Part shown: in pieces, positions 149-10,681 of the stretch
Numbering within the stretch: position 1 is the stretch's first letter
Layout of the letters: every line of letters begins with the position of its first letter
NCBI GenBank assembly: GCA_965660445.1
Contig: CBFIAK010000003.1
Location: 1-10,681 of the forward strand
Direction of reading: 5' to 3'
Origin: Patescibacteria group bacterium
Lineage (GTDB): Bacteria; Patescibacteriota; Gracilibacteria; UBA4473
Length of the DNA: 10,681 nucleotides
Made by a program: the position numbers and the translations under genes
Notes under the pieces: model-generated
Seen by the model: the letters and a program-made list of their open reading frames with translations, nothing else
The model's database searches: none
What the model was told of the DNA's origin: nothing

Positions 149-2338
149 CTATTTATCGGGAGGGATTCCCATGTGTTGAAACAAAAATTCTGCCGATTTT
201 CGAAAAGTAACAGCGGCTGTTTCAGAACCCCATTGTGATGACTTTGGATAATCATATTTTACTAAAATTACGAATTTTGGGTCTTGGAGTGGGCCAAATC
301 CTGCATAGGAAGTGATAGTTGTTCCGGCTCCTTCTTGAGCTTTTCCGTTTTTATAGGTTTGTGAGGTTCCTGTTTTTCCCATAATGGTATATCCATAAAC
401 CTGTGAAGCGGTGGCAATCCCTTTTTCGACGGTATGTAATAACATAGCTTTGACGGTATTGTAGGTTTCATTAGAGATAACTCGTTTTATTTTTTGTGGA
501 TGAAATTTCTTCACTGTTCCATCGGGATAACGAATTTCTTCTACTAAGATAGGTTTATTGAGATATCCTCCATTGGCAAGAGCTGAAAAAGCATATGCCA
601 TTTGGAGTGGTGTTGATGTAACCCCTTGTCCGAAACCTCGAGTAACGAGCTCTGATTCAGTCCATTCATTCCAGAAAGGAAGTGTTCCATTGGCTTCTCC
701 GTTTAGTTCAATATCAGTGTATTCTCCGAACCCAAAATCCTTGAGATATGTATAAAGAAGCTGAGAACCCATTTTTTTTGTAATAAAAGCAATTCCGGTA
801 TTGAGCGATCGACTCAAGACCGAAACCATACTTGTCCAACCAGCGTATGTGCTATCAGAGTTTCGAATCTGAAATTCATCTACTTTGATAGGCCCAACGT
901 CATTAAACACAGTTTGAGGTGTTATTTCTTGAGCGTTTATAGCAGCGGCTATCGTAACCGCTTTCATAACAGATCCAGGTTCATATGTGTCAGCAACAAT
1001 TCGGTTTCGAAAAACGAGTGGCCCCCAAGTATTAAAATATCGAAAATATTGTCCTGTTTCTGTTTGTATAGTGGGTATTCGTTTATTAAAATTTTCGTTT
1101 TCCATATCGAACTGGTATTGTTCTTCTGTGATTTCGTATTGAGAAAATGCTTTTGTGTATTGATTTGGATCGAACGTCGGTTGGTGCACCATGGCTAATA
1201 TTCTTCCTGTTTCTGGTTCTATAACAATAATCTGTCCAGCATCAGCTTCAAATCGACGAATGTCATCAGCGAGTATTTTTTCAAGTTGACCTTGAATAAC
1301 TCTATCAATTGATAAGACAACATCGGCTCCGTTTTCGGCTCTTGAAAACTGGTAGTCTTTTCCGAGTATTTGTTGTCCACGAATATTTGTCGCTCCAAAA
1401 ATAACACCACTCTTTCCAGAAAGTATATCGTTAAATCGACCTTCAATTCCGTATTGTCCTACACCATTGTTATTTACAAATCCAATTACTTGAGATGCTA
1501 AACTTCGTTCGGGGTAGTATCGCCACTGTTCATCTTGTAGTTGTATACCCCTTAATATTGTTTGATATTCAGGATTGTTTTTGAGTGCTTCTATTTTTTC
1601 AGATACTTCGGGGTTTATTTTTTCTTGAATCGGAATATATCGAGTCTGTCTGCGCTTGAGAAGTTCGGCTAATGTATCGGGTTCTATATTAATAAGTGGC
1701 GACAATATTTCTGCTGATTTGACTGGATCGGTAATAAGCACAGGGTCTGCAATAAGCTGGTTTTCTTCAACACTTATACCTTGAAGTCGTAGTTGGAGGA
1801 TAGTATTTCCTCTTTCTGGTGTAATTCCATTAACAAGTATGACACGGCGACGCTCAAGTTGTGTAAACTTTTTTTCGAGTTCTTTTTGATATGCTTGGAT
1901 AATGCTTTTTTCTAATGGTGTCCAGTCTGCTGGATCTTCCTTTACTATACATCCTTCGATTCTTTCACAATGTGAGTTTATGAGTAATGGAGCAATGAGT
2001 TGTGCTGCGAGTTGAGGGTTTCCTCGTTCTTGGTTGTCAAGTGGTTCTCTGGGGTTATACCGAGGATAAGCAAGAATAAGTGGATCAACGAATAACATTT
2101 TAAGGGTGTTATTGGTTGCGAGTGGAATGTATTCATCCACTTTCATATTTTTTCGTACTAATATTTTCCCTCTTTGAGCAGGGAGTTCAAACCGTTTTTG
2201 GTGTTGATCTCGAGCAAGGGTTTCATATTTATTATGTTCCAGTATTTGTAATTCAAATAATCGAATAGTAAATACGAGAAATATAATGCTGAACGCATAC
2301 TGCAAAACTCGTATTCTTTTTTTTACTCGAAAATCCAT
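149..2338 (-). CDS. ftsI: Class B penicillin-binding protein (FtsI/PBP3-like peptidoglycan D,D-transpeptidase), 729 aa, with insertions
   Basis: N-terminal TM anchor; class B motifs RGKI, RYYP, GQYGIE, DVVLSID and TGRILAM; catalytic SxxK (EPGSVMK, S456), SxN (SLN) and KTG (GKTGT). FDPN, YEPGS and GFGQG...TPLQ favour FtsI/SpoVD over MrdA. Confidence 0.88.
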   Translation of the reverse strand: MDFRVKKRIRVLQYAFSIIFLVFTIRLFELQILEHNKYETLARDQHQKRFELPAQRGKILVRKNMKVDEYIPLATNNTLKMLFVDPLILAYPRYNPREPLDNQERGNPQLAAQLIAPLLINSHCERIEGCIVKEDPADWTPLEKSIIQAYQKELEKKFTQLERRRVILVNGITPERGNTILQLRLQGISVEENQLIADPVLITDPVKSAEILSPLINIEPDTLAELLKRRQTRYIPIQEKINPEVSEKIEALKNNPEYQTILRGIQLQDEQWRYYPERSLASQVIGFVNNNGVGQYGIEGRFNDILSGKSGVIFGATNIRGQQILGKDYQFSRAENGADVVLSIDRVIQGQLEKILADDIRRFEADAGQIIVIEPETGRILAMVHQPTFDPNQYTKAFSQYEITEEQYQFDMENENFNKRIPTIQTETGQYFRYFNTWGPLVFRNRIVADTYEPGSVMKAVTIAAAINAQEITPQTVFNDVGPIKVDEFQIRNSDSTYAGWTSMVSVLSRSLNTGIAFITKKMGSQLLYTYLKDFGFGEYTDIELNGEANGTLPFWNEWTESELVTRGFGQGVTSTPLQMAYAFSALANGGYLNKPILVEEIRYPDGTVKKFHPQKIKRVISNETYNTVKAMLLHTVEKGIATASQVYGYTIMGKTGTSQTYKNGKAQEGAGTTITSYAGFGPLQDPKFVILVKYDYPKSSQWGSETAAVTFRKSAEFLFQHMGIPPDK

Positions 2339-2473
2339 ATCGTCTCAAACTATGCCATAAGAACAAAAAAAAATCCATATTCTTTTTCTATCTCTATTTC
2401 ATGTTTTTTTATTTTGTCAATGCCATTTTGTGGTTTCTTTTTGTTTTTATTAGTTGTTTTTTTGTTCTCTCGA

Positions 2474-2479
2474 TATAAT
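2474..2479 (+). promoter_or_regulatory. Perfect -10 box TATAAT, 9 nt upstream of ATG 2489
   Basis: Sequence cgaTATAATgatgtggctATG; no convincing -35 and no SD. Confidence 0.45.
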
Positions 2480-2488
2480 GATGTGGCT

Positions 2489-3673
2489 ATGCCATTTCAT
2501 GATTTTCAGCGCACACTTGGAAAAAAGGTCTTTGTGATGATAGGGACGTCCTTTTTTTTAGGTGCTTCTTGGTTTACAATGGAACAATTTCTTATGGATA
2601 TGGAAGTGCCTTTGCCGTTTCTTTCATCGAATTCTTTTTTAAACGAAAAAACCAGAAACCGTATCAGTACATTTCGAGACACTCATATTACTCGACAAGA
2701 ATCTGCTGAATTTGAACAACCTACTGAGCAATTAGTGGTGCGTCCAACATCAGTTCGGAATCAGCATCGAAAAATGCAAGACTTAACGAATTTTGAAACA
2801 AAAGGCAGTACACTTGCTTTTTATGAAAATTTTTATGCTTCAGCCGCAAAGTCGGAATGTAAGGACTCTGATGGAGGTATTAATTATGCTCAAAGAGGAG
2901 AAGTTGTGTATGAATCTGGGGATACAAAAGTCAAAACCATTTTATCAGATCGAGTTTTAGGGACTCATGAGTTACTTGAGTATTATTGTGAGAACGGAAC
3001 ATTGAAAGCTGAGTCAATGCGATGTCCTATTGAACTCAAAGGTCCTGCGTGTGCTTTGTCTTCCAAAGAAGCAATGGCAAAAGAGTTCTTTTATTCAGCA
3101 GATAAGGAATATTCTTCAACTCATATCTTGCAATTGGCTCCCGGATGGAACTGGGTTTCGTTTGCTTTAGATCCGCATACGAAAGTAGTGAAGGATTTAT
3201 TTCAACCACTGTACGAAGTCGATGAGTCTTTCATTATAAAAGAACACACTGGAGATTTGTTTTGGCCAAAGATGGATATTGATTTATTAGGAGTTATTGA
3301 TCCATTTACGGCATACCAAATATACGTCTCTCGTCCGTTGGAACTTGAGATTCCTGGATCGGAATTTGCATATCCTATTTATCAAGAGTTGAAAGCTGGG
3401 TGGAACTTTTTTGGGTTTCATTCGTTTGAACCAGCAAAAGTACAGTGTGTTCTGAAAGATTTGATAGATTCCAACCAGTTATGGGCCGTGAAAGATTCGA
3501 AAGGGAAGGTGATGGCGTCTGTAAATGGTGAATGGGAAGACGAAATTGAATCGTTTGTGCCTGGTCAAGCATATCAAGTGTATGTGTATAACTTTGAAGG
3601 AGAAACACGTCAGTTTGAGTTTCGTGAATCGTTTTTGTGTGAAGAGAATGTTTTAGAGAGGACCGAAGAATAG
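2489..3673 (+). CDS. Membrane-anchored or secreted surface protein (394 aa) with a C-x-DSDGG cysteine module and two LxxGWN repeats
   Basis: The start is better placed at ATG 2489 (MPFHDF...) than TTG 2414. Basic residues precede a hydrophobic stretch (KKVFVMIGTSFFLGASWF). CKDSDGG...EYYC...C...GPAC lies at 2858-3052, followed by LAPGWNWVSF...AYQIYV and LKAGWNFFGF...AYQVYV about 85 aa apart. Confidence 0.75.
   Translation: MPFHDFQRTLGKKVFVMIGTSFFLGASWFTMEQFLMDMEVPLPFLSSNSFLNEKTRNRISTFRDTHITRQESAEFEQPTEQLVVRPTSVRNQHRKMQDLTNFETKGSTLAFYENFYASAAKSECKDSDGGINYAQRGEVVYESGDTKVKTILSDRVLGTHELLEYYCENGTLKAESMRCPIELKGPACALSSKEAMAKEFFYSADKEYSSTHILQLAPGWNWVSFALDPHTKVVKDLFQPLYEVDESFIIKEHTGDLFWPKMDIDLLGVIDPFTAYQIYVSRPLELEIPGSEFAYPIYQELKAGWNFFGFHSFEPAKVQCVLKDLIDSNQLWAVKDSKGKVMASVNGEWEDEIESFVPGQAYQVYVYNFEGETRQFEFRESFLCEENVLERTEE
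3128..3590 (+). repeat. Two tandem ~85-aa protein-level repeats (LxxGWN...AYQxYV)
   Basis: GWN codons begin at 3143 and 3398 (255 nt apart); AYQ codons begin at 3311 and 3569 (258 nt apart). The copies are diverged at DNA level. Confidence 0.75.
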
Positions 3674-3679
3674 TTTTTC

Positions 3680-4711
3680 TTAGTTTTTGTTATGACGTTG
3701 TAGGCTGTTTTCTATTGATTCTTCAACGATTTTTTTGTGTTGAGCAACAGGTCTGTATTTGGGAAAATACGAATTGAAGAGGGAAGCCAACTCGTTTATT
3801 GTGTCTTCATCATTAGGGTTTTCGAGTGCTTTTTTATACATTGCTTCCGCTTTTTTGCTTTGCCCTGTTTCAATATAGTATTGACAGAGCTCGTGATGGC
3901 CAAATGGTTCATAGGGGTTTAATTCATAGAGTTGTTCGAGAATGTGTATTGGCTCTTTGTCTTCCGGTAAGTCAATGAGATCATCGTTGTAGAGTGTGTA
4001 GAGATCTTGGAGTAATTGTTCAAGGGTTTCATCGTCGCCTTCTGTTTCGTTTTGATGAATTGCATCGTATAGTTTTTGTTGGTACAAGTCGACTTTGAAT
4101 TGATATTTAGATTGTTTATTGTGAGCAAGTTTTCCATAGAGTTTACACAATGGATAGAGGAGAAATTGATTTTGAGTTGTATTATAAATCGAATCAAACC
4201 GAATCATAAGAGTGTCAATTGCTTCTTCGTTGGTATGTTTTGTATAAAATTCAAAAATAGCGTTCCAAAAATACTCGTTTTCTGATTTTTGTTCTAAAAG
4301 CCAATCAAGAGTTTCTTTCGCGAATTGAATGTTGTTTTTATTTTTTTCTATAAACGCTTCTCGGAGTTTTTTATCAAAATAAGGGTCGTCAAATAAGGGT
4401 TGATATTGATCGTATGGATTTTCAATATTATGGGCAATAATTTCTAAGTCTTGTTCTAAATCCTCTTTTTCTCTCATAATATCAGTGACATCTTTTTCTT
4501 CTGTTTTCTCTTCTGCTTGTGGATACAGATATTTATAAAGACGTTTTTTAGTGTCATCTTGTATTTTTATAATCAAATCATCTATCGTTTTAATAAGTTC
4601 ATTCGGATTTCCTTTTTTGTATTCAGCAAAGGCTTTTGTTCGTGATAGGGTATTAAAATTTTCTGATAGAAAATTGGAAATATAATCGGGAAGATTTGGA
4701 TATTTTTTCAT
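3680..4711 (-). CDS. Alpha-helical protein with C-terminal TPR-like repeats (about 343 aa)
   Basis: The likely start is ATG 4711 (MKKYPNL), since the track start at 4774 overlaps comM. TPR-like signature LEQLYELNPYEPFGHHELCQYYIETGQSKKAEAMYKKALENPND; acidic, helical composition. Confidence 0.7.
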   Translation of the reverse strand: MKKYPNLPDYISNFLSENFNTLSRTKAFAEYKKGNPNELIKTIDDLIIKIQDDTKKRLYKYLYPQAEEKTEEKDVTDIMREKEDLEQDLEIIAHNIENPYDQYQPLFDDPYFDKKLREAFIEKNKNNIQFAKETLDWLLEQKSENEYFWNAIFEFYTKHTNEEAIDTLMIRFDSIYNTTQNQFLLYPLCKLYGKLAHNKQSKYQFKVDLYQQKLYDAIHQNETEGDDETLEQLLQDLYTLYNDDLIDLPEDKEPIHILEQLYELNPYEPFGHHELCQYYIETGQSKKAEAMYKKALENPNDEDTINELASLFNSYFPKYRPVAQHKKIVEESIENSLQRHNKN

Positions 4712-4739
4712 AAACAGAATAATAAAAATTATTTTATTT

Positions 4740-6257
4740 TCATGATTTTGGTCTGTATCCAATAGCTTCAGCAATATGCTGAGTTTCTATCGAATCGCAA
4801 TCATGAAGATCAGCAATAGTTCTCGCTATTTTTATTATACGATAAAAAGACCGACCTGACAAGTTCATTTTAGCAGTGGCTTCTTTGAGTAAGTCTTGGC
4901 ATTCTTTAGAAAGAGGAGCGTATTTCTTGACGTGCGGAGATGTCATATGTGCATTGAATTCAATTGGTTCGTTTTGAAACCGATCTTTTTGTCTTGCTCG
5001 TGCTTTTTCAACAAATGATCGAAATGTACGAGAATCATGAGATGAGGCACTGCTATTTATTTTTTCAAACGGGAGAGCTGGAATATGAATATGTAAATCA
5101 ATTCTATCAACGATTGGCCCTGATATTCGGTTTTGGTATTTTTGTATTTGAGCGGCTGAACAGGTGCATCGAGTGTCGTTACTTTCAAACCCGCAAGGCG
5201 TTGGGTTTGTAGCTGCCACAAGCATAAACTGTGACGGAAACTGAACTTTTCCTGACGCTCTTGAAATACTGATATATCCGTCTTCAAGGGGTTGTCGTAA
5301 AATATCTATTGTGCGCTGTGAAAACTCACCAAATTCATCTATAAAAAGAACTCCTCCATGAGCGAGTGATATTTCCCCAGGGCTCGGTGGGTTTCCGCCT
5401 CCAGCGAGTGCTACACTACTGGCCGTGTGATGAATAGACCGAAATGGACGACTGCGGATAATTGGGTTTTCGGGGCTTGTGAGTCCAGCGATCGAATGAA
5501 TCTTTGTAATATCAAGGGCTTCTTTAAGGCTGAGCGTTGGGAGTATAGTGATGATTGATTGGGCGAGCATTGATTTTCCTGTTCCGGGGGGACCAGAGAG
5601 GAGAATATTGTGTCCACCTGCTGCAGCGATACACAAAGCTCTTTTGGCGTGTTCGTGTCCTTTAATATGTTTTAAGTCTCGACTGTCGTCGTGGTTTTCG
5701 TTTTGTTCAATAAGGGGGATAAACGATGTTTTTGGTATGTGTTGGTGTTGCGTTATGTGTTGTGTTGCTTCGTGTAGAGTTGTGCCAGCATATATATCAA
5801 TATCTGGTACAAATTGACATTCTCCTTCGTTTTCTTTTGGAATAAATATTTGTTTAAAGTTTTGAGTGTGTGCAAACGCAGTTAAAGGCAGAGCGCCACG
5901 AATGGGACGAATTTGTCCTTGAAAATTAAGTTCTCCTAAAAAGAGAGCATGCTTATATGTTGGAGGAATCGTTATCTGTTCGCTAGCATGAAGGATTCCT
6001 AAAGCAATTGCTAAATCGAACCGAGGACCATATTTTTTAATATCAGCGGGAGCAAGATTGACCGATATGACTTGAGAAGGAAACTCAAATCCACTATTTT
6101 TCAGCGCTGATCGAATCCGTTCTTTTGATTCTTGAATAGCGGTGTCTCCTAGTCCAACAATGGAAAACCGAGGGAGTCCTTTGTGGATATCGACTTCAAT
6201 ATCAATAACAGCTCCATCGAGCCCGATAGTTGTGAGTGACTGAAGAGTGCAAAGCAT
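4740..6257 (-). CDS. comM: YifB/ComM family Mg-chelatase-like AAA+ ATPase (505 aa)
   Basis: N-terminal IEVDIHKGLPRFSIVGLGD...ESKERIRSAL and VNLAPAD; Walker A GPPGTGKS; FRSIHH; GEISLAHGGVLFIDE (Walker B); SGPIVDRID; C-terminal ARTIADL...HIAEAIGYR. ATG 6257 fits the family N-terminus. Confidence 0.95.
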   Translation of the reverse strand: MLCTLQSLTTIGLDGAVIDIEVDIHKGLPRFSIVGLGDTAIQESKERIRSALKNSGFEFPSQVISVNLAPADIKKYGPRFDLAIALGILHASEQITIPPTYKHALFLGELNFQGQIRPIRGALPLTAFAHTQNFKQIFIPKENEGECQFVPDIDIYAGTTLHEATQHITQHQHIPKTSFIPLIEQNENHDDSRDLKHIKGHEHAKRALCIAAAGGHNILLSGPPGTGKSMLAQSIITILPTLSLKEALDITKIHSIAGLTSPENPIIRSRPFRSIHHTASSVALAGGGNPPSPGEISLAHGGVLFIDEFGEFSQRTIDILRQPLEDGYISISRASGKVQFPSQFMLVAATNPTPCGFESNDTRCTCSAAQIQKYQNRISGPIVDRIDLHIHIPALPFEKINSSASSHDSRTFRSFVEKARARQKDRFQNEPIEFNAHMTSPHVKKYAPLSKECQDLLKEATAKMNLSGRSFYRIIKIARTIADLHDCDSIETQHIAEAIGYRPKS

Positions 6258-6273
6258 GTGTGTTTTTTTCTTT

Positions 6274-6302
6274 ACCTTAGTATTTTTTAAAAAAAGACTC
6301 AA
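6274..6302 (-). promoter_or_regulatory. Putative sigma70 promoter of comM, TTGAGT-N17-TAAGGT
   Basis: -35 at 6302-6297 and -10 at 6279-6274; 16 nt to the ATG through an A-rich leader with no SD. Confidence 0.45.
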
Positions 6303-6326
6303 TAGTTTCTGTTTTTTTGAAAGTAA

Positions 6327-6354
6327 TTGACGTATTTTATTTTTCTTTTATATT
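6327..6354 (+). promoter_or_regulatory. Putative sigma70 promoter TTGACG-N16-TATATT, leaderless configuration
   Basis: -35 at 6327-6332 and -10 at 6349-6354; 7 nt to ATG 6362. Confidence 0.55.
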
Positions 6355-6361
6355 AGTCACC

Positions 6362-7141
6362 ATGAATAAACTTCCTTCGTCATTATCTCTTGATGCTCAT
6401 CGTCAAGCTGAGATTGATCGTATAAATGAATGTACTCAAATTTATTGGCAAAAAGCAATAAATGATCCCGTTCATGCGCGTGATTATTTAAGAGAGTTAT
6501 GTGATGTTATTTTTGATGGGGTTCGTATTGAAACATTTCTTCATGATATTGGGAATATTCTTCATATAAAGGAAGGAATTTTGTTTGCTCCCAATCATCC
6601 AGGAGTGCTTGATGAACATAAGATATTTTTTAATAATACACACTCAATACCGTATTATATTTTGCATTTTGATTTTCTTATAGAGTATTTGCTCGACAAA
6701 AAAGTTCATTTCATTGTGAGTGATCCTATTGATGAATCATATCGAGAACTAATTCGACAAATGGAATACATCATAGTACCAGATAAAGCTCATGGAAAAA
6801 AAATGACCACAGAAGAACGAGAAGCTATCAACGCACAAATTCAATCGTATTTAGAAAAAGGAGAACATGTAGCGTTTTTTCCAGAAGGGAAAAGTCATGG
6901 GGAAGGGAATATTGGAAAACTACAAAAAGGAATGGTTCATTTTGTGAACCAAAACCCAAAGACGCCCCTTGTTCCTGTTCGTTTAGATGGGTTTGATAAG
7001 CCATATCATCAGATAGATGTTACGTTTGCTCCTCCAAAAACGGCTGATGATATTTCAGAAAGAAACGAATCAGCAGAAGAAATTGTGGAAGATATTCGTC
7101 GTCGTGTATATCGAGACGGGTTAGGCTTGCGTATGGTTTAA
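6362..7141 (+). CDS. PlsC-like lysophospholipid acyltransferase (LPLAT family), 259 aa
   Basis: Catalytic HxxxxD (NHPGVLD), block III FFPEGK, block IV PLVPVRL and C-terminal VTFAPP. ATG 6362 is preferred over TTG 6317. Confidence 0.8.
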   Translation: MNKLPSSLSLDAHRQAEIDRINECTQIYWQKAINDPVHARDYLRELCDVIFDGVRIETFLHDIGNILHIKEGILFAPNHPGVLDEHKIFFNNTHSIPYYILHFDFLIEYLLDKKVHFIVSDPIDESYRELIRQMEYIIVPDKAHGKKMTTEEREAINAQIQSYLEKGEHVAFFPEGKSHGEGNIGKLQKGMVHFVNQNPKTPLVPVRLDGFDKPYHQIDVTFAPPKTADDISERNESAEEIVEDIRRRVYRDGLGLRMV

Positions 7142-8067
7142 GAATCGGGATCTAAAAATCGTTCGTGAGTTCGTTTCAGGTCTGCATTTGCAACATGTGT
7201 ATAGATTTGTGTTGTAGCGATATTGCTGTGTCCGAGTAGTTCTTGAACAGATCTCAAATCTGCTCCGTTTCGGAGTAGTTTTGTGGCAAAAGTGTGTCTG
7301 AGTACATGAGGGGTGACGGGACGAGTAATGCCAGCGCGTCGGCCACGGTTGCGTATCATTATTTCAATAGAGGTTCGTGAGATGCGTCGAGATTCTCCAT
7401 TGGTTTCAAATTCGTCTTCACGAGTACGAGCATTGATAAATAATGGTGGATACGAATCGTCTCGTTCTTTGATATATAATGTGAGTTTTTCAGTGGCTTT
7501 GGGGGTGAGGTAGACATTTCGAATCTTTTTTCCTTTTCCCATAACAGAAAATTCTCGAGTGGAGAGATTTACGTTTTCTCGATTTAAGGCGCAGAGTTCG
7601 GAAATTCGGAGTCCTGTTGAGAAAAGCATTTCAACGATTGCGGCATCTCTGATATTTATGAATCGGTTTTGCGATGCATCGGTAGATCGGAGTCGATCGA
7701 GTTCTTCTTGGGTGAGTCCGGAAACATTTCTTGGATCAAGTTTTAAGAGTTCTATTTTATCAGGAGAAAGAACAGGATCATCAATTTCTTTTTGTAAACA
7801 AAATTTTAAAAACGCACGAACTGGTGTGAGGTATATGTTTTGGGTGCGTCGAGCGAGTGTTTCTCCTGATTGAGTTTTAATTTCAAACAGAGTGTCACGG
7901 AATGTATCAATGGTGTCGTGCGATATGTCTCGCACATGGGCATCTTCGCCAATGCATTGCACAAGCATGTCGAGACTTCTGCTGTAGTTGCGCAGTGTAT
8001 AGGGTGATGCATTACGAATGGTTTTGAGGTATCGCATATAGCGATCAATAGCGGTGAGTATATTCAT
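7138..8067 (-). CDS. xerC: XerC/XerD-family tyrosine recombinase (309 aa)
   Basis: N-terminal ASPYTLRNY core-binding domain; complete catalytic set: R (TGLRISEL), K (GKGKK), HxxR (TPHVLRHTFAT), H (QELLGHS) and Y (TTQIYTH). NGADLRSVQ is typical of chromosomal Xer. C versus D cannot be resolved by eye. Confidence 0.88.
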   Translation of the reverse strand: MNILTAIDRYMRYLKTIRNASPYTLRNYSRSLDMLVQCIGEDAHVRDISHDTIDTFRDTLFEIKTQSGETLARRTQNIYLTPVRAFLKFCLQKEIDDPVLSPDKIELLKLDPRNVSGLTQEELDRLRSTDASQNRFINIRDAAIVEMLFSTGLRISELCALNRENVNLSTREFSVMGKGKKIRNVYLTPKATEKLTLYIKERDDSYPPLFINARTREDEFETNGESRRISRTSIEIMIRNRGRRAGITRPVTPHVLRHTFATKLLRNGADLRSVQELLGHSNIATTQIYTHVANADLKRTHERFLDPDS

Positions 8068-8996
8068 GAGAAGAACGACAAGAGTGTATCAATTTCGTTT
8101 CGAGATCCTAACAATATACTTTCTGTTTGATGAGTGTTTTGAAGTGGAATAGTGAGAATGGGGACGCCTTCTTGGGTTACTGCTTTTCCTTGAAGTTTTT
8201 CTATGATATGGGCACAGGGAGCACATTCGAATAAGAGTCGGAGTTTTGCTGGTTTGTTTGGTGTTTTGGGGTATAAGAATACCCCTTCTTTTTTTGTAAT
8301 TATATGGTGTAAATCGCTAATCATACCTCCTGAATATCGCAGAGTTTTTTGTTGTTGGATACACGTATCAATATATCGTTTATAGTTTTCGTTTTGTGCG
8401 GCACTCTTGAGGTTTCCAGGGGCGAAATAAGATGTGTTTGGGTTGAGGGTGCTTAATTGTTGAGTAAACACAAATTCTCCAACATCATTGAGCTGAAATT
8501 GAAATACAGTGTTTTCAAGAGTACAGACAAAAATAACTTGAGGACCATAAATACTGTAGCAACTACTTTTTATTTTTGCACCAGTTGTGTTTTCGAAATG
8601 GGGGGTGTCCCAAATACCAAAAACAGATCCCACACTGAAATTACTTTCAAAAATAGAGCTTCCATCCAGCGGATCGTAGCTGACTGCATACGAGTGAGAA
8701 TCGGGATGTGTTTTATGTGAGGTTGGATATTGTTTTTCTTCACTGGCAGAAAGATGACAGTATTCACTGAGTGATAGTTCATACTCTATAAGAGTGTCAG
8801 AAATTCGATCAATTGGAATTTGAGTGTCTCCAGACGGATTTTTCGTTGTTGAGGTGAGGGTTGTGCCAGATCGAATAGCAAAATTTATATATTTTACGCT
8901 TCGAGCAAGAGATTCGATAATGCGCCTGAGCGGTATATCGGTTGTTTGTTCTCGCAAAATATCAAGAAGTGTTTTTTGTTCGAGATAGGGATGCAT
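8064..8996 (-). CDS. fbp: Class I fructose-1,6-bisphosphatase family protein, SBPase-like (310 aa)
   Basis: Metal-binding SEE and [31 protein letters not shown]. Its TGA stop overlaps the xer ATG (ATGA, 8067-8064). Confidence 0.9.
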   Translation of the reverse strand: [310 protein letters not shown]

Positions 8997-9025
8997 ACAA
9001 TGGTTTGTTGATAAATTCTCTTTTA

Positions 9026-10027
9026 TTATAGAGCAGTCGTTGGTGTCTGTATAGGGGGAGAATCGCCTTGTGTTCGTATTTCATCAAAAATATCAATCAT
9101 TTCTTGGAGCGATTCAAGGCGGATAAGTCGTTCTCGGTACTGACTTGCTCCTTTTATGCCTCGAATAATATGGGCAAAATGTTTTCTCATCTCAATCATA
9201 GCCCATCGTTCGTCTTTGTGGGTCACGGCGAGTCGTGCATGGCGTTCAAACAAATTGAGTTGGTCATCAAGCGTAGGTTTTGCAGGAATGGGGGTATTAT
9301 TGAACGCAGCCCGGCATTGTGCAAAAATCCATGGGTTTCGTAGTGCTGCACGACCAATCATCATTCCATCAAGATTCTTCAGTTTTTTTTGAGCGATGGT
9401 ATGTGAGGTGACGTCTCCGTTTCCGAGTATTGGAATAGAATGGATATTCTTTTTTACTTCGTAAATAGGGTTCCAATCGGCTGTTCCGGTAAACCGTTGT
9501 TTTGTGGTGCGTCCATGAATAGCAAGTGATGCAATCCCTGCCGATTCAAAATCTTTGGTAGTTTGGATAAGGTTTGAGTCGTTATAAAACCCAAGACGCA
9601 TTTTTACTGAAACAGGAAGATCTGTTGACTGTGTTATTTTTTCTATAAGACGAGCTGTAGCACATGGGTCTTTTAAGAGTGCTGATCCGTGACCAGATCC
9701 AATCACTTTTGGGGAAGGACATCCAAGATTAAGATCGATTCCATCAGCGCCTAAGTCTTCCACTATTTTTACAGCAAGAAGAAAGGAATCTACGCTTTTC
9801 CCAAACAATTGTACGCAATAATAGTTTTTTTCAGCAAGGGCGAATGCTGCCATTCGCAGTGTTTTTTCTGATTTATGACGAAACGCTTCGCACGACAAGA
9901 GCTCTGAAATAAGAACGGTTGAGGGTTCTATTTCTTTCACGATTTGCCGAAATGGGCTCTCTGTGTATCCAGCCATTGGCGATAGTACGAGTATGGGGCG
10001 AGGAATCTCTTTCCAAAAATTATTCAT
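9026..10027 (-). CDS. dusB: tRNA-dihydrouridine synthase, DusB-type (333 aa)
   Basis: Motifs LSPMAG, VQLFG, IDLNLGCP (catalytic Cys), GSALLK, VSVKMRLG, IHGRT, GNGDV, MIGRAAL-NPW and MRKH. Confidence 0.93.
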   Translation of the reverse strand: MNNFWKEIPRPILVLSPMAGYTESPFRQIVKEIEPSTVLISELLSCEAFRHKSEKTLRMAAFALAEKNYYCVQLFGKSVDSFLLAVKIVEDLGADGIDLNLGCPSPKVIGSGHGSALLKDPCATARLIEKITQSTDLPVSVKMRLGFYNDSNLIQTTKDFESAGIASLAIHGRTTKQRFTGTADWNPIYEVKKNIHSIPILGNGDVTSHTIAQKKLKNLDGMMIGRAALRNPWIFAQCRAAFNNTPIPAKPTLDDQLNLFERHARLAVTHKDERWAMIEMRKHFAHIIRGIKGASQYRERLIRLESLQEMIDIFDEIRTQGDSPPIQTPTTAL

Positions 10028-10197: not shown

Positions 10198-10681
10198 ATG
10201 AAATTTTTGTCGCATTTTTCGGATACTGAAATGAAATTATGGCTTTATGCCAATGCTACACCCAAAAGTGATATAGAATCGAACGATTCTCGAATTGAGG
10301 GGTTAGATGCTACTGCGCTTAAAAAATATGTAGATCGATTTGATTCAGATGTTATTCAAAAAGTCGAGGTGCTTGGGAGAAAAGGAACGGATTCAATGCG
10401 GAAGATTATTGATGGGAGATCTTTTCGTGTACCAGCGGTATTGAAAGTGACTTATTCTGATAAAGCTCCTCATCCCAATACGGAATCGTATTATGCTGTT
10501 GATGAAAATAAAAATATGTATTGGTGGGATGGCGAAACCTATCGACCAGAACTGTATTTGACTGTTCAGTACGAAAAATTAGAGCCACATCGTAATTGGT
10601 ATAAGGAACGATTTGATCTTGATCGATTGGATTTATCCATGCGGATTGATTCATTTCAATTTCAAGGGAATGAAGCTGTGT
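10198..10681 (+). CDS. Hypothetical protein, 5' part (at least 161 aa, runs off the window)
   Basis: Manual translation is open to the edge: MKFLSHFSDTEMKLWLYANATPKSDIESNDSRIEGLDATALKKYVDRFDSDVIQKVEVLGRKG...YAVDENKNMYWWDGETYRPELYL...FQGNEAV. A promoter lies upstream. It is presumably absent from the ORF track because it has no stop in the window. Confidence 0.8.
   Translation, partial: MKFLSHFSDTEMKLWLYANATPKSDIESNDSRIEGLDATALKKYVDRFDSDVIQKVEVLGRKGTDSMRKIIDGRSFRVPAVLKVTYSDKAPHPNTESYYAVDENKNMYWWDGETYRPELYLTVQYEKLEPHRNWYKERFDLDRLDLSMRIDSFQFQGNEAV

Follow-up and report, generated by a model that had tools for sequence, protein, structure and literature searches.

The window analysed here, a stretch of 10,681 nucleotides from a Patescibacteria group bacterium, encodes a bisphosphatase, P0001, which its sequence places in the class I fructose-bisphosphatase (FBPase) superfamily, in the subfamily resembling sedoheptulose-1,7-bisphosphatase (SBPase) (Table 1). 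The ORF listing and the translation agree on a frame that is open over its whole length from an ATG start, and all strings quoted for this protein in the original prediction, made from the DNA alone, are present in the translation. P0001 is flanked by Dus and Xer genes. The ATG of the Xer-type recombinase gene and the stop of the bisphosphatase share an overlap of four bases, ATGA (8064-8067), and a Xer recombinase lies directly downstream, as in the window, in 16 of 20 family loci.

Table 1 Features of the bisphosphatase locus in the window
Feature	Position	Strand	Basis or correspondence
Bisphosphatase gene P0001	8064..8996	-	310 aa, ORF from ATG; translation, Pfam, PDB matches, tree, AF2 model
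LBH-aligned segment, residues 44-60	8817..8867	-	Ungapped alignment to SBPase-specific loop/beta-hairpin (LBH) motif
Thr46; Thr51	8859-8861; 8844-8846	-	At positions of chloroplast SBPase redox pair C115/C120
S85-E86-E87, acidic metal/substrate site	8736..8744	-	E86 = CrSBPase E155; invariant across 31 diverse rows
DPLDGSS 108-114, metal-binding motif	8655..8675	-	D108, D111, G112 = CrSBPase D173, D176, G177
LRYSGGM 219-225, sugar-phosphate pocket	8322..8342	-	Y221, G223, G224, M225 = CrSBPase Y287, G289, G290, M291
Residues 250-260	8217..8249	-	K251, L252, R253, E257 = CrSBPase K317, L318, R319, E323
Xer-type tyrosine recombinase gene	7138..8067	-	Pfam Phage_integrase, 142 bits; conserved downstream neighbour

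P0001 matched Pfam PF00316 (FBPase N-domain; 89.3 bits, gathering cut-off 34.8) and PF18913 (FBPase_C; 113.9 bits, gathering cut-off 27). All nine NCBIfam class 1 fructose-bisphosphatase equivalogs (NF006778-NF006786) stayed below their curated cut-offs, the best being NF006784 with 200.8 bits against 395. The AF2 model reached a pLDDT of 93.2. Its segment aligned to the LBH motif, which is described with the Chlamydomonas SBPase numbering (C115, C120) in PMC11961124, shows two 2-residue strands (51-52 and 58-59) predicted with lower confidence (pLDDT 67-68). The metal ligands and the pocket are kept (E86, E87, D108, D111, G112, Y221, G223, G224, M225, K251, L252, R253 and E257), and across 31 diverse subfamily members 24 columns are invariant, every one of them retained in P0001. 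P0001 also matches each of the 12 residues listed as the CrSBPase pocket; having been defined on the human FBPase:FBP complex, they do not tell fructose-1,6-bisphosphate (FBP) from sedoheptulose-1,7-bisphosphate (SBP). The resulting pocket signature, EDDGYGGMKLRE, is that of Carya (plant) SBPase and is common to 61 of 103 rows. It follows the YGGM...KLRE pattern of plant SBPase, whereas E. coli Fbp shows YGSL (signature EDDGYGSLKLRE), with G-S-L where P0001 carries G223-G224-M225. Ala250 is a lineage-derived state that matches plant SBPase, Gly being the family consensus. No known sequence feature sets the preference for FBP or SBP, a point that weighs against reading a dual role from the protein.

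The original prediction held that the protein leans towards eukaryotic SBPase over E. coli-type Fbp, and a phmmer search against all PDB chains bore this out. The algal and moss SBPases led (Chlamydomonas 7b2o, 176.8 bits, E 6e-51; moss 5iz3, 164 bits), whereas FBPases scored 77-116 bits: Leishmania FBPase 116, pea and spinach chloroplast FBPase about 104, mammalian FBPase 88-96 and E. coli Fbp 76.7 bits, with Toxoplasma SBPase at 110. A typical family member gave the same ranking (SBPases 204 and 192 bits versus 128-159 for FBPases), and the plant SBPase motifs given in that prediction were almost identical to the moss SBPase row of the alignment. Foldseek with the P0001 model ranked SBPases first (E 2e-32); the TM-scores of 0.87-0.91 were equal for SBPases and FBPases, so the fold has no discriminating power. 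The redox cysteines are absent, as had been claimed: C115 and C120 align without gaps to Thr46 and Thr51, and the column check gave T/T. Both cysteines occur in 3 of 103 rows, all plant-type, and since these are merely 3 of the 22 rows of the eukaryotic clade, the pair marks the plant-type subgroup only. Judged from the alignment, the missing cysteines of P0001 are the rule among the rows and carry no special meaning.

We inferred a maximum-likelihood tree (LG+C20 PMSF) from 89 rows, selected from 217 rows plus 6 family orthologues; L045, L062, L070, L064 and L060, which have an internal stop, an in-frame TGA or a partial sequence, were kept out of all trees. In this tree, a check proposed with the original prediction, P0001 stood apart from canonical Fbp, inside an 81-row SBPase-like clade (UFBoot 100 / SH-aLRT 99, stem 0.58) that holds Desulfuromonadia, Campylobacterota, Gracilibacteria/Peregrinibacteria and eukaryotic SBPases and was recovered in the quick tree and in FastTree too. 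Outside it lay E. coli Fbp, C. necator CbbF, other proteobacterial, Saprospiraceae and Planctomycetota enzymes, and Bodo-type cytosolic FBPase, the one representative of eukaryotic FBPase, with no chloroplast or other cytosolic FBPase in the tree. Of 599 genome loci, the best 80 included no archaeal class I homologue.

Within the SBPase-like clade, P0001 grouped with its own Gracilibacteria-type family and Peribacterales in a 24-row clade (95/87). The eukaryotic SBPase clade (100/98) comprised 22 rows, 4 of them named after a eukaryotic source (Carya, Mesostigma, an MMETSP transcript and Blabericola), 2 more JGI-named SBPase without organism and 16 without a name. It was nested among CPR rows in the maximum-likelihood tree and joined by the Peribacteria group L013 + P0123 (100/99), the sister being a bona fide Peribacteria contig gene. 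The original idea is thus borne out in part: P0001 does not nest among canonical Fbp, yet it is not itself a sister lineage of SBPase, the place adjoining eukaryotic SBPase in this tree being taken by the Peribacteria group. We named three hypotheses for AU tests after the first tree had been seen, and none was rejected at the 0.05 level: P0001 forced into the eukaryotic clade (31.4 lnL worse, p 0.064), Campylobacterota joined with the eukaryotic clade (p 0.40), and a single clade of the 42 CPR-like rows that leaves out eukaryotes (p 0.067). The backbone of the SBPase-like clade is statistically not fixed, and the older topology with an epsilonproteobacterial sister is still compatible; Jiang et al. 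2012 (PMC3503850) reported epsilonproteobacterial class I FBPase as that sister. By score, a large set of mostly unnamed CPR enzymes is closer to SBPase than the epsilonproteobacterial enzymes are.

Its linkage to Xer identifies P0001 as the positional orthologue of the enzyme found in its family, a fast-evolving one with no recent transfer from or to eukaryotes. Its identity to the family orthologues is 41.5%, compared with 64.6% for the adjoining Xer, and in family-to-family pairs the gap between bisphosphatase and Xer identity is -2.0 +/- 3.2 points. The divergence of P0001 is accelerated and gene-specific. It is the fastest-evolving copy in the family, a singleton even with 50% clustering, and deviates at 39 of 128 columns conserved at 90% or more in the family. 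Its Pfam N-domain score of 90.8 bits in the scan of 201 class genomes is the lowest of the full-length matches, almost all others scoring 104-160 bits and only fragmentary or recoded matches falling below it. Such acceleration could reflect relaxed rather than new constraint, an observation that tells against a dual role. Convergence on plant SBPase was considered and set aside as too weak: 8 of 40 derived states of P0001 coincide with the eukaryotic SBPase majority, but the count for Campylobacterota is 7 (Peribacterales 2, canonical FBPases 2), and the changes are mostly conservative swaps (L/I/V, E/D, G/A). Class I FBPases in 208 records of a plasmid collection were all at most 33.2% identical to P0001, so no mobile close relative was found there. 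Otherwise P0001 is ordinary, one divergent orthologue of a housekeeping enzyme present family-wide.

The host genome is of CPR type, measures 0.99 Mb and is 100% complete by markers, with 0.74% contamination. Genetic code 25 was checked because the nearest named relatives are 'Candidatus Gracilibacteria', and was rejected in favour of table 11, as no UCA-anticodon tRNA was found among 36 tRNAs and 89 of 610 ORFs that reach 200 aa or more terminate in TGA. P0001 gave the one PF00316 match in the genome and is the sole FBPase of any class found there, profiles having found no GlpX, FBPase_3, Inositol_P or FBPase_2. Transketolase (TKT), class II aldolase (FBA-II), RPE, RpiB and PGI are present. 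Profile searches did not find transaldolase (TAL), PFK, RuBisCO or G6PD_C in the genome, nor GlmS, one of the main F6P consumers; for phosphoketolase, the lone XFP_N match was an 18-bit cross-match on the transketolase gene. No transaldolase remnant was seen in the scanned ORFs of at least 100 aa around PGI and TKT. This inventory, with TKT and class II aldolase present and no TAL, PFK or RuBisCO, fits the transaldolase-free route that had been raised at the outset. Given TKT, RPE, RpiB and FBA-II and no TAL, PFK, G6PD or RuBisCO, aldolase plus P0001 acting on SBP would be the only complete pentose-phosphate route found among the enzymes searched for.

We compared 201 sampled genomes of the class, leaving G030, whose match was below cut-off, out of the FBPase count. 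Among the 141 TKT-positive genomes, 102 have the enzyme, 63 of them together with TAL; of the 39 that lack it, 12 have TAL. TAL thus tends to accompany the enzyme, which gives no support to transaldolase replacement by anticorrelation and indicates that the enzyme is no dedicated TAL replacement. In all, 27 of the 141 have TKT with neither TAL nor a P0001-type enzyme, so an incomplete pathway lacking both is common in the class. Both the co-occurrence with TAL and this commonness speak against a dual role. The combination of FBPase-like enzyme, TKT and FBA-II without TAL was found in 29 of 201 genomes. Class II aldolase, the only class searched, occurred in 29 of 39 TAL-less enzyme-positive genomes versus 12 of 63 TAL-positive ones. 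This enrichment was discarded as evidence, since a few families drive it (f15 11/11, f7 0/23) and the window's own family gave 9/15 versus 4/9. The 10 of 39 TAL-less enzyme-positive genomes without class II aldolase, like the missing GlmS in the host, count against a dual role. The 14 other TAL-less genomes of the window's family carry ordinary bisphosphatase sequences.

We think it somewhat probable that P0001 is an F/SBPase, converting FBP to F6P and most likely acting on SBP too, in a riboneogenic path. The protein, which has the class I FBPase fold, is predicted to be active as a Mg-dependent phosphatase of sugar-1-bisphosphates and, by homology, would hydrolyse FBP to F6P, which would then pass to PGI and transketolase. 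Class II aldolase would condense E4P and DHAP to SBP, and P0001 would most likely hydrolyse this product as well, because aldolase, TKT, RPE and RpiB are present and no TAL, PFK, G6P dehydrogenase, phosphoketolase or RuBisCO was found. The outcome would be an irreversible path, Calvin-like and 'riboneogenic', that leads from triose phosphates to ribose-5-phosphate, and P0001 may in this way allow ribose synthesis without transaldolase. Lacking the Cys pair, it would not be thioredoxin-regulated. Three papers offer precedents: in Toxoplasma, which is non-photosynthetic, an SBPase of the FBPase family drives the synthesis of ribose (PMC7164669), bifunctionality is described for class I CbbF enzymes (PMC3503850), and SBPase hydrolyses FBP too (PMC11961124).

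It is possible, though not what we expect, that P0001 is a plain gluconeogenic FBPase supplying F6P to PGI and sugar-nucleotide synthesis, with SBP a non-physiological substrate, the pentose pathway incomplete and pentoses salvaged from the host or environment. The source names of its close relatives all read 'fructose-1,6-bisphosphatase'; bacterial members of the clade are considered gluconeogenic, the epsilonproteobacterial FBPases being so regarded in PMC3503850, a point against the dual role. Incompleteness is evidently tolerated in the 27 TKT-positive genomes described above, and incomplete CPR pathways are reported in PMC7143001 and PMC7304191. However, a 0.99-Mb genome has kept transketolase, RPE and RpiB, which would have no complete function without a TAL or SBP route, and enzymes of the same fold commonly accept SBP (PMC3503850, PMC11961124).

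The burst of gene-specific substitution (41.5% versus 64.6% identity for Xer) lends itself to two further readings. One would see in it the specialisation of a dedicated SBPase with a plant-like SBP preference and a dispensable FBPase role. The 8 derived states shared with the eukaryotic majority, against 2 each for Peribacterales and canonical FBPases, and the missing GlmS would suit it, yet these matches are mostly conservative and nearly equalled by Campylobacterota, PGI is kept, and TAL-less relatives in the family retain ordinary sequences. Moreover, SBP synthesis needs E4P made from F6P, and without PFK the obvious source of F6P is FBP hydrolysis; we consider this specialisation very improbable. 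Hardly more convincing is relaxed selection, with the genome shedding sugar metabolism (no TAL, G6PD, GlmS or PFK) and the enzyme weakened and heading for loss. It would account for the fastest rate in the family, the lowest full-length N-domain score and the 39 changed family-conserved columns, but the frame is intact, the ATGA overlap with xer is preserved, the fold prediction is confident, and every invariant column and pocket residue is retained; were substitutions evenly spread at 41% identity, 24 kept columns would be very unlikely (~0.41^24).

The enzyme bears on two wider questions. PFK is missing from many CPR genomes, as transaldolase often is, and their pentose pathway has been left 'incomplete' in the literature; an aldolase plus SBPase route would close it using existing genes. 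The prokaryotic source of Calvin-cycle SBPase is debated: Jiang et al. 2012 proposed epsilonproteobacteria, and Gütle et al. 2016 reportedly argued for an archaeal origin. The Peribacteria lineage is nearest in our maximum-likelihood tree, whose backbone is not statistically fixed. A broader reading, in which eukaryotic SBPase came from within the Gracilibacteria/Peregrinibacteria (CPR) radiation instead of from epsilonproteobacteria or archaea and the CPR enzymes, P0001 included, are working F/SBPases in transaldolase-free riboneogenesis, seems to us rather unlikely as a whole; if true, it would fill a long-noted gap in CPR pentose metabolism.

Among known systems, eukaryotic SBPases (Chlamydomonas 7B2O/7ZUV, Physcomitrium 5IZ3) resemble P0001 most, being its best matches in sequence (31-34% identity) and structure (TM 0.87-0.89, E 2e-32), with equal length, an alignment without gaps through the LBH segment, an identical 12-residue pocket and membership of the same large clade. 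Unlike chloroplast SBPase, P0001 has neither the C115/C120 pair nor a transit peptide, its genome has no Calvin cycle (no RuBisCO), and it falls outside the eukaryotic clade in the maximum-likelihood tree. Campylobacterota class I FBPases (PMC3503850) share the SBPase-like clade and the lack of redox cysteines and are 34-38% identical to P0001 (tblastn), but they are shorter (~280 aa) and sit in a separate clade with a long stem (100/99); with plant SBPase P0141, P0001 scores 164.6 bits, against about 138 bits with Campylobacterota-grouping representatives. CbbF of proteobacterial cbb operons (C. necator pHG1) has the same fold and catalytic residues and the dual FBP/SBP activity proposed for P0001. 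It differs in its pocket signature (EDDGWASMRLRE), in its placement next to Caulobacter and gammaproteobacterial Fbp within the canonical clade (100/98) and in its context, a cbb operon with RuBisCO, PRK and TKT, whereas P0001 sits beside Dus and Xer in a genome without RuBisCO.

The role proposed for P0001 is that of Toxoplasma gondii SBPase (4IR8), an enzyme of the FBPase family which, outside photosynthesis, commits carbon from glycolysis irreversibly to the non-oxidative pentose pathway (PMC7164669). That enzyme comes from a eukaryote, its score with P0001 is 110 bits, and Toxoplasma also has a transaldolase and an oxidative branch, neither of which was found in the P0001 genome. Cellulolytic clostridia likewise use SBP and aldolase instead of transaldolase, and there S7P is phosphorylated by PFK in a route that can run both ways (PMC7029132). 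With no PFK found in the P0001 genome, only the phosphatase direction, towards pentoses, would be possible.

The bisphosphatase gene of the window is an intact ORF, and its translation contains all the peptides quoted in the original prediction. Its product, P0001, matches the Pfam class I fructose-1,6-bisphosphatase (FBPase) domains (N-domain 89.3 bits, C-domain 113.9 bits) and all nine NCBIfam class 1 FBPase models. The NCBIfam scores sit far under the curated cut-offs (best 200.8 vs. 395 bits), so P0001 is a divergent member of the class I FBPases. The window is an entire 10.7-kb contig of a 991-kb, five-contig genome for which marker genes indicate 100% completeness and 0.74% contamination. 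This genome uses the standard genetic code; no tRNA-UCA was found among its 36 tRNAs, and TGA is the stop codon of 89 of 610 long ORFs. In the window, GC skew was positive in 19 of 20 1-kb windows, cumulative skew climbed almost steadily, and the minus strand carries six of the nine long ORFs.

Coordinates of the bisphosphatase gene, its neighbours and other loci discussed
Feature	Location	Remarks
Bisphosphatase gene (P0001)	window 8064-8996 (-)	310 codons
Xer-type recombinase gene	window 7138-8067	start shares four bases, ATGA, with the bisphosphatase stop
Dihydrouridine synthase gene		end lies 29 bases upstream of the bisphosphatase gene
PBP2-type transpeptidase gene	window 149-2338	
ORF, 419 aa	window 2414-3673 (+)	no Pfam match
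ORF, at least 161 aa	window 10198-10680 (+)	no Pfam match
Two ORFs, 469 and 399 aa	L108 5288-7889	adjoin transketolase; no Pfam match
Pentose-phosphate operon of a family relative	L110 (G072:C1:1078500-1088500), ORFs 1674-9624	transaldolase, glucose-6-phosphate isomerase (PGI), FBPase-family paralogue, LOG-like, 6PGD, G6PD, GNAT, 6-phosphogluconolactonase
Peribacteria bisphosphatase gene	L013:5998-6894	on a 129-kb contig among uvrA, dnaG, yebC and the dCTP deaminase gene (dcd)

P0001 had been thought nearer to plant and algal sedoheptulose-1,7-bisphosphatase (SBPase) than to E. coli Fbp, and comparison with all PDB sequences bore this out: Chlamydomonas SBPase scored 176.8 bits and moss SBPase 164, followed by Leishmania FBPase (116), Toxoplasma SBPase (110), chloroplast FBPase (about 104), mammalian FBPase (88-96) and E. 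coli Fbp (76.7). P0004, one of the typical orthologues in the bacterial family of P0001, keeps that order with a smaller margin (SBPases 204/192 vs. FBPases 128-159), indicating that the bias toward SBPase belongs to the lineage. An AlphaFold model of P0001, built from a 31-row alignment, was confident (pLDDT 93.2, pTM 0.92), and Foldseek placed SBPase structures on top (E 2e-32 to 1e-30). TM-scores were alike for SBPases and FBPases (0.87-0.91), and the fold was therefore rejected as a discriminator between them. Twelve residues are described as lining the substrate pocket of Chlamydomonas SBPase (PMC11961124), and all twelve, mapped through the PDB-search alignment, are identical in P0001. 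The resulting signature, EDDGYGGMKLRE, is that of plant SBPase and is common to 61 of 103 aligned rows, unlike the signatures of E. coli Fbp (EDDGYGSLKLRE) and of CbbF, the bifunctional enzyme of cbb operons (EDDGWASMRLRE). P0001 also aligns gap-free across the loop/hairpin motif that holds the SBPase redox pair C115/C120 and is called SBPase-specific (PMC11961124). The cysteines are indeed missing, as originally read, with Thr46 and Thr51 at these positions. Both cysteines occur in only 3 of the 103 rows, all plant-type, and within the eukaryotic SBPase clade the pair is missing from 19 of 22 rows; the absence of the cysteines from P0001 is uninformative and nothing special.

Of 2490 candidates from a word-based search, 1507 were relatives at E ≤ 1e-10, and not one exceeded 47% identity to P0001; the few named ones are annotated 'fructose-1,6-bisphosphatase', one being from 'Candidatus Gracilibacteria'. 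The full HMMER scan of 1.84 billion representatives gave 2452 matches at E ≤ 0.001, with a Carya chloroplast SBPase representative at 164.6 bits, and even clustering at 50% leaves P0001 a singleton. In species-representative genomes 599 loci were confirmed, and the best 80 of them include Gracilibacteria (43% and 38% identity), Peribacteria/Peregrinibacteria (30-37%), one Spirochaetota MAG (35%), Campylobacterota (32-38%), Desulfuromonadia and relatives (29-33%), and ordinary proteobacterial and Saprospiraceae enzymes (29-33%). Fused forms were also seen: the metagenomic 661-aa P0122 carries its SBPase-like domain at residues 358-653, behind an N-terminal half, P0139 and P0301 (651 and 730 aa) are likewise listed as fused, the Chromera velia protein bearing the name of a chloroplast SBPase joined to HMB-PP reductase.

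A maximum-likelihood tree (IQ-TREE, LG+C20+F+G4 by PMSF; 89 rows, 313 columns; ultrafast bootstrap/SH-aLRT support) included E. coli fbp and, from the cbb operon on C. necator pHG1, cbbF as canonical references. An SBPase-like clade of 81 rows (100/99, stem 0.58) excluded eight canonical rows. Desulfuromonadia and allies are basal within it, Campylobacterota form a long-stemmed clade (100/99), and a 64-row assemblage (97/70) unites CPR-type rows with the eukaryotic SBPase clade (22 rows, 100/98). P0001 sits at the end of a long terminal branch (1.2), and its own family, Peribacterales and the Spirochaetota group share its clade of 24 rows (95/87). Its membership of the SBPase-like subfamily, apart from canonical Fbp, is thus solid. 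The "sister lineage" of SBPase in the original prediction proved too specific, as the sister of the eukaryotic clade is the Peribacteria gene at L013 together with representative P0123 (100/99). The contig neighbours of the L013 gene mark it as bacterial, and its protein is without the redox cysteines.

The backbone of the tree is soft. Forcing P0001 together with the eukaryotic clade lowered lnL by 31.4 (AU p 0.064), and uniting 42 CPR-like rows in one clade without eukaryotes lowered it by 33.8 (AU p 0.067). An archaeal origin of SBPase has reportedly been argued by Gütle et al. in 2016. Jiang et al. 2012 placed eukaryotic SBPase beside epsilonproteobacterial class I FBPase (PMC3503850), and constraining Campylobacterota with the eukaryotic clade in this way cost 6.9 lnL units (AU p 0.40). 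The favoured reading is that SBPase is nested among CPR sequences: CPR enzymes crowd round the root of eukaryotic SBPase and perhaps enclose it. Among the passages covered by full-text searches of an incomplete collection, none claims an SBPase origin in Patescibacteria, and the sedoheptulose, transaldolase and bisphosphatase passages of a Microgenomates genome report (PMC7143001) do not discuss SBPase origin. This wider CPR pattern is a more interesting lead than the P0001 gene alone.

We next compared P0001 with homologues from 20 genomes of the same GTDB-level family. The Xer recombinase gene lies directly downstream in 16 of the 20 loci, as in the window, so P0001 is the positional orthologue. 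Its identity to the 20 proteins is 38-45% (mean 41), and theirs to one another 46-93% (mean 63). With the neighbouring Xer as a clock, window-to-family identity was 64.6% (57-72) for Xer and 41.5% (39-45) for the bisphosphatase, a gap of -23.2 points that was never smaller than -15.5, whereas 78 family-to-family pairs gave -2.0 ± 3.2 (extreme -10.1). Since family pairs diverge in step and window pairs do not, the acceleration is specific to the bisphosphatase gene, which is unusually fast-evolving. Of 128 columns with at least 90% conservation in the family, P0001 deviates from the consensus in 39, yet it keeps all 24 columns invariant across 31 diverse subfamily members. Several of the letters originally read as plant-like (SSI, NF, V and the Ala of AKLRLL) belong to its derived states, of which 8 of 40 equal the eukaryotic majority and 7 of 40 that of Campylobacterota; most are conservative. 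Fourteen other family genomes without transaldolase (TAL) carry ordinary bisphosphatase sequences.

The original prediction, which raised a transaldolase-independent pentose route, named transketolase, aldolase, transaldolase and RuBisCO as genes to look for. Transketolase (TKT; a full-length 637-aa ORF) and class II FBP aldolase are present in the window's genome, as are ribulose-phosphate epimerase, RpiB, PGI and a single PF00316 gene, that of P0001. Searches of this genome did not find transaldolase/FSA, the RuBisCO large chain, phosphofructokinase (PFK), GlpX, FBP aldolase/phosphatase, IMPase-type or class III FBPase, RpiA, G6P dehydrogenase or phosphoketolase, for which the transketolase gene gave a cross-match of 18 bits and nothing else matched. 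Two of six sampled family relatives (G153 and G167) do have phosphoketolase (XFP_N, about 450-460 bits), so sugar catabolism varies widely within one family. GlmS (TIGR01135), above cut-off in five of six sampled family relatives, was not found in the window's genome, although the window encodes a PBP2-type transpeptidase.

The class was sampled with 201 genomes of 80% completeness or more; an FBPase-type gene occurs in 107, TAL in 76 and TKT in 141. The TKT-positive genomes comprise 63 with both FBPase-type gene and TAL, 39 with the FBPase-type gene only (the window's genome included), 12 with TAL only and 27 with neither. This absence of anticorrelation counts against a dedicated transaldolase-replacement role, and an SBP-dependent pentose route gains no support from co-occurrence statistics. 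The FBPase-type enzyme is a general feature of metabolically richer class members, and pathways without either gene are common. Of the 201 genomes, 29 carry the full proposed set (FBPase-type gene, TKT and class II aldolase, no TAL). Among 31 genomes of the window's family, all have PGI, 9 have G6PD, and PFK was found in 1. Among genomes with TKT and an FBPase-type gene, class II FBP aldolase occurs in 29 of 39 TAL-less and 12 of 63 TAL-containing ones, a pattern driven by few families (11/11 in f15, 0/23 in f7). With lengths of about 216-250 aa, the TAL_FSA proteins in the sample are short, and some might therefore function as aldolases. The FBPase-family protein in the L110 operon is a second paralogue of P0234/P0243 type, 28% identical to P0001; in another relative, G076, a second FBPase match likewise lies near the transaldolase gene, at a distance of about 4 kb.

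By pathway logic, with the genes found, pentose breakdown halts at sedoheptulose-7-phosphate and hexose breakdown at F6P. By established biochemistry, transketolase, epimerase and isomerase could then be employed in a stoichiometrically complete way only in an anabolic Calvin-like sequence. Triose-P would be converted through FBP to F6P; F6P and GAP would yield E4P and Xu5P; aldolase would join E4P and DHAP to SBP; SBP would be dephosphorylated to S7P; and S7P and GAP would yield R5P and Xu5P. Such a sequence would require a phosphatase acting on both FBP and SBP. From this logic we reasonably infer an SBP-dependent pentose route in the window's genome. Proteobacterial class I CbbF enzymes are described as bifunctional (PMC3503850), and SBPase as also hydrolysing FBP (PMC11961124). 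Jaffe et al. 2019 credit a Peregrinibacteria genome with all Calvin-cycle genes but FBPase, hence with an SBPase call, and the relevant passages of Anantharaman et al. 2016 report no FBPase in Peribacteria. CPR metabolism papers describe PFK as missing, and transaldolase as missing in one genome, and propose no SBPase route in those passages (PMC7304191, PMC7143001). Cellulolytic clostridia are reported to run an SBP route in place of transaldolase, but with PFK (PMC7029132), which was not found in the window's genome. In Toxoplasma, an SBPase of the FBPase family is reported to drive ribose synthesis without photosynthesis (PMC7164669), a precedent for the non-photosynthetic pentose role proposed for P0001.
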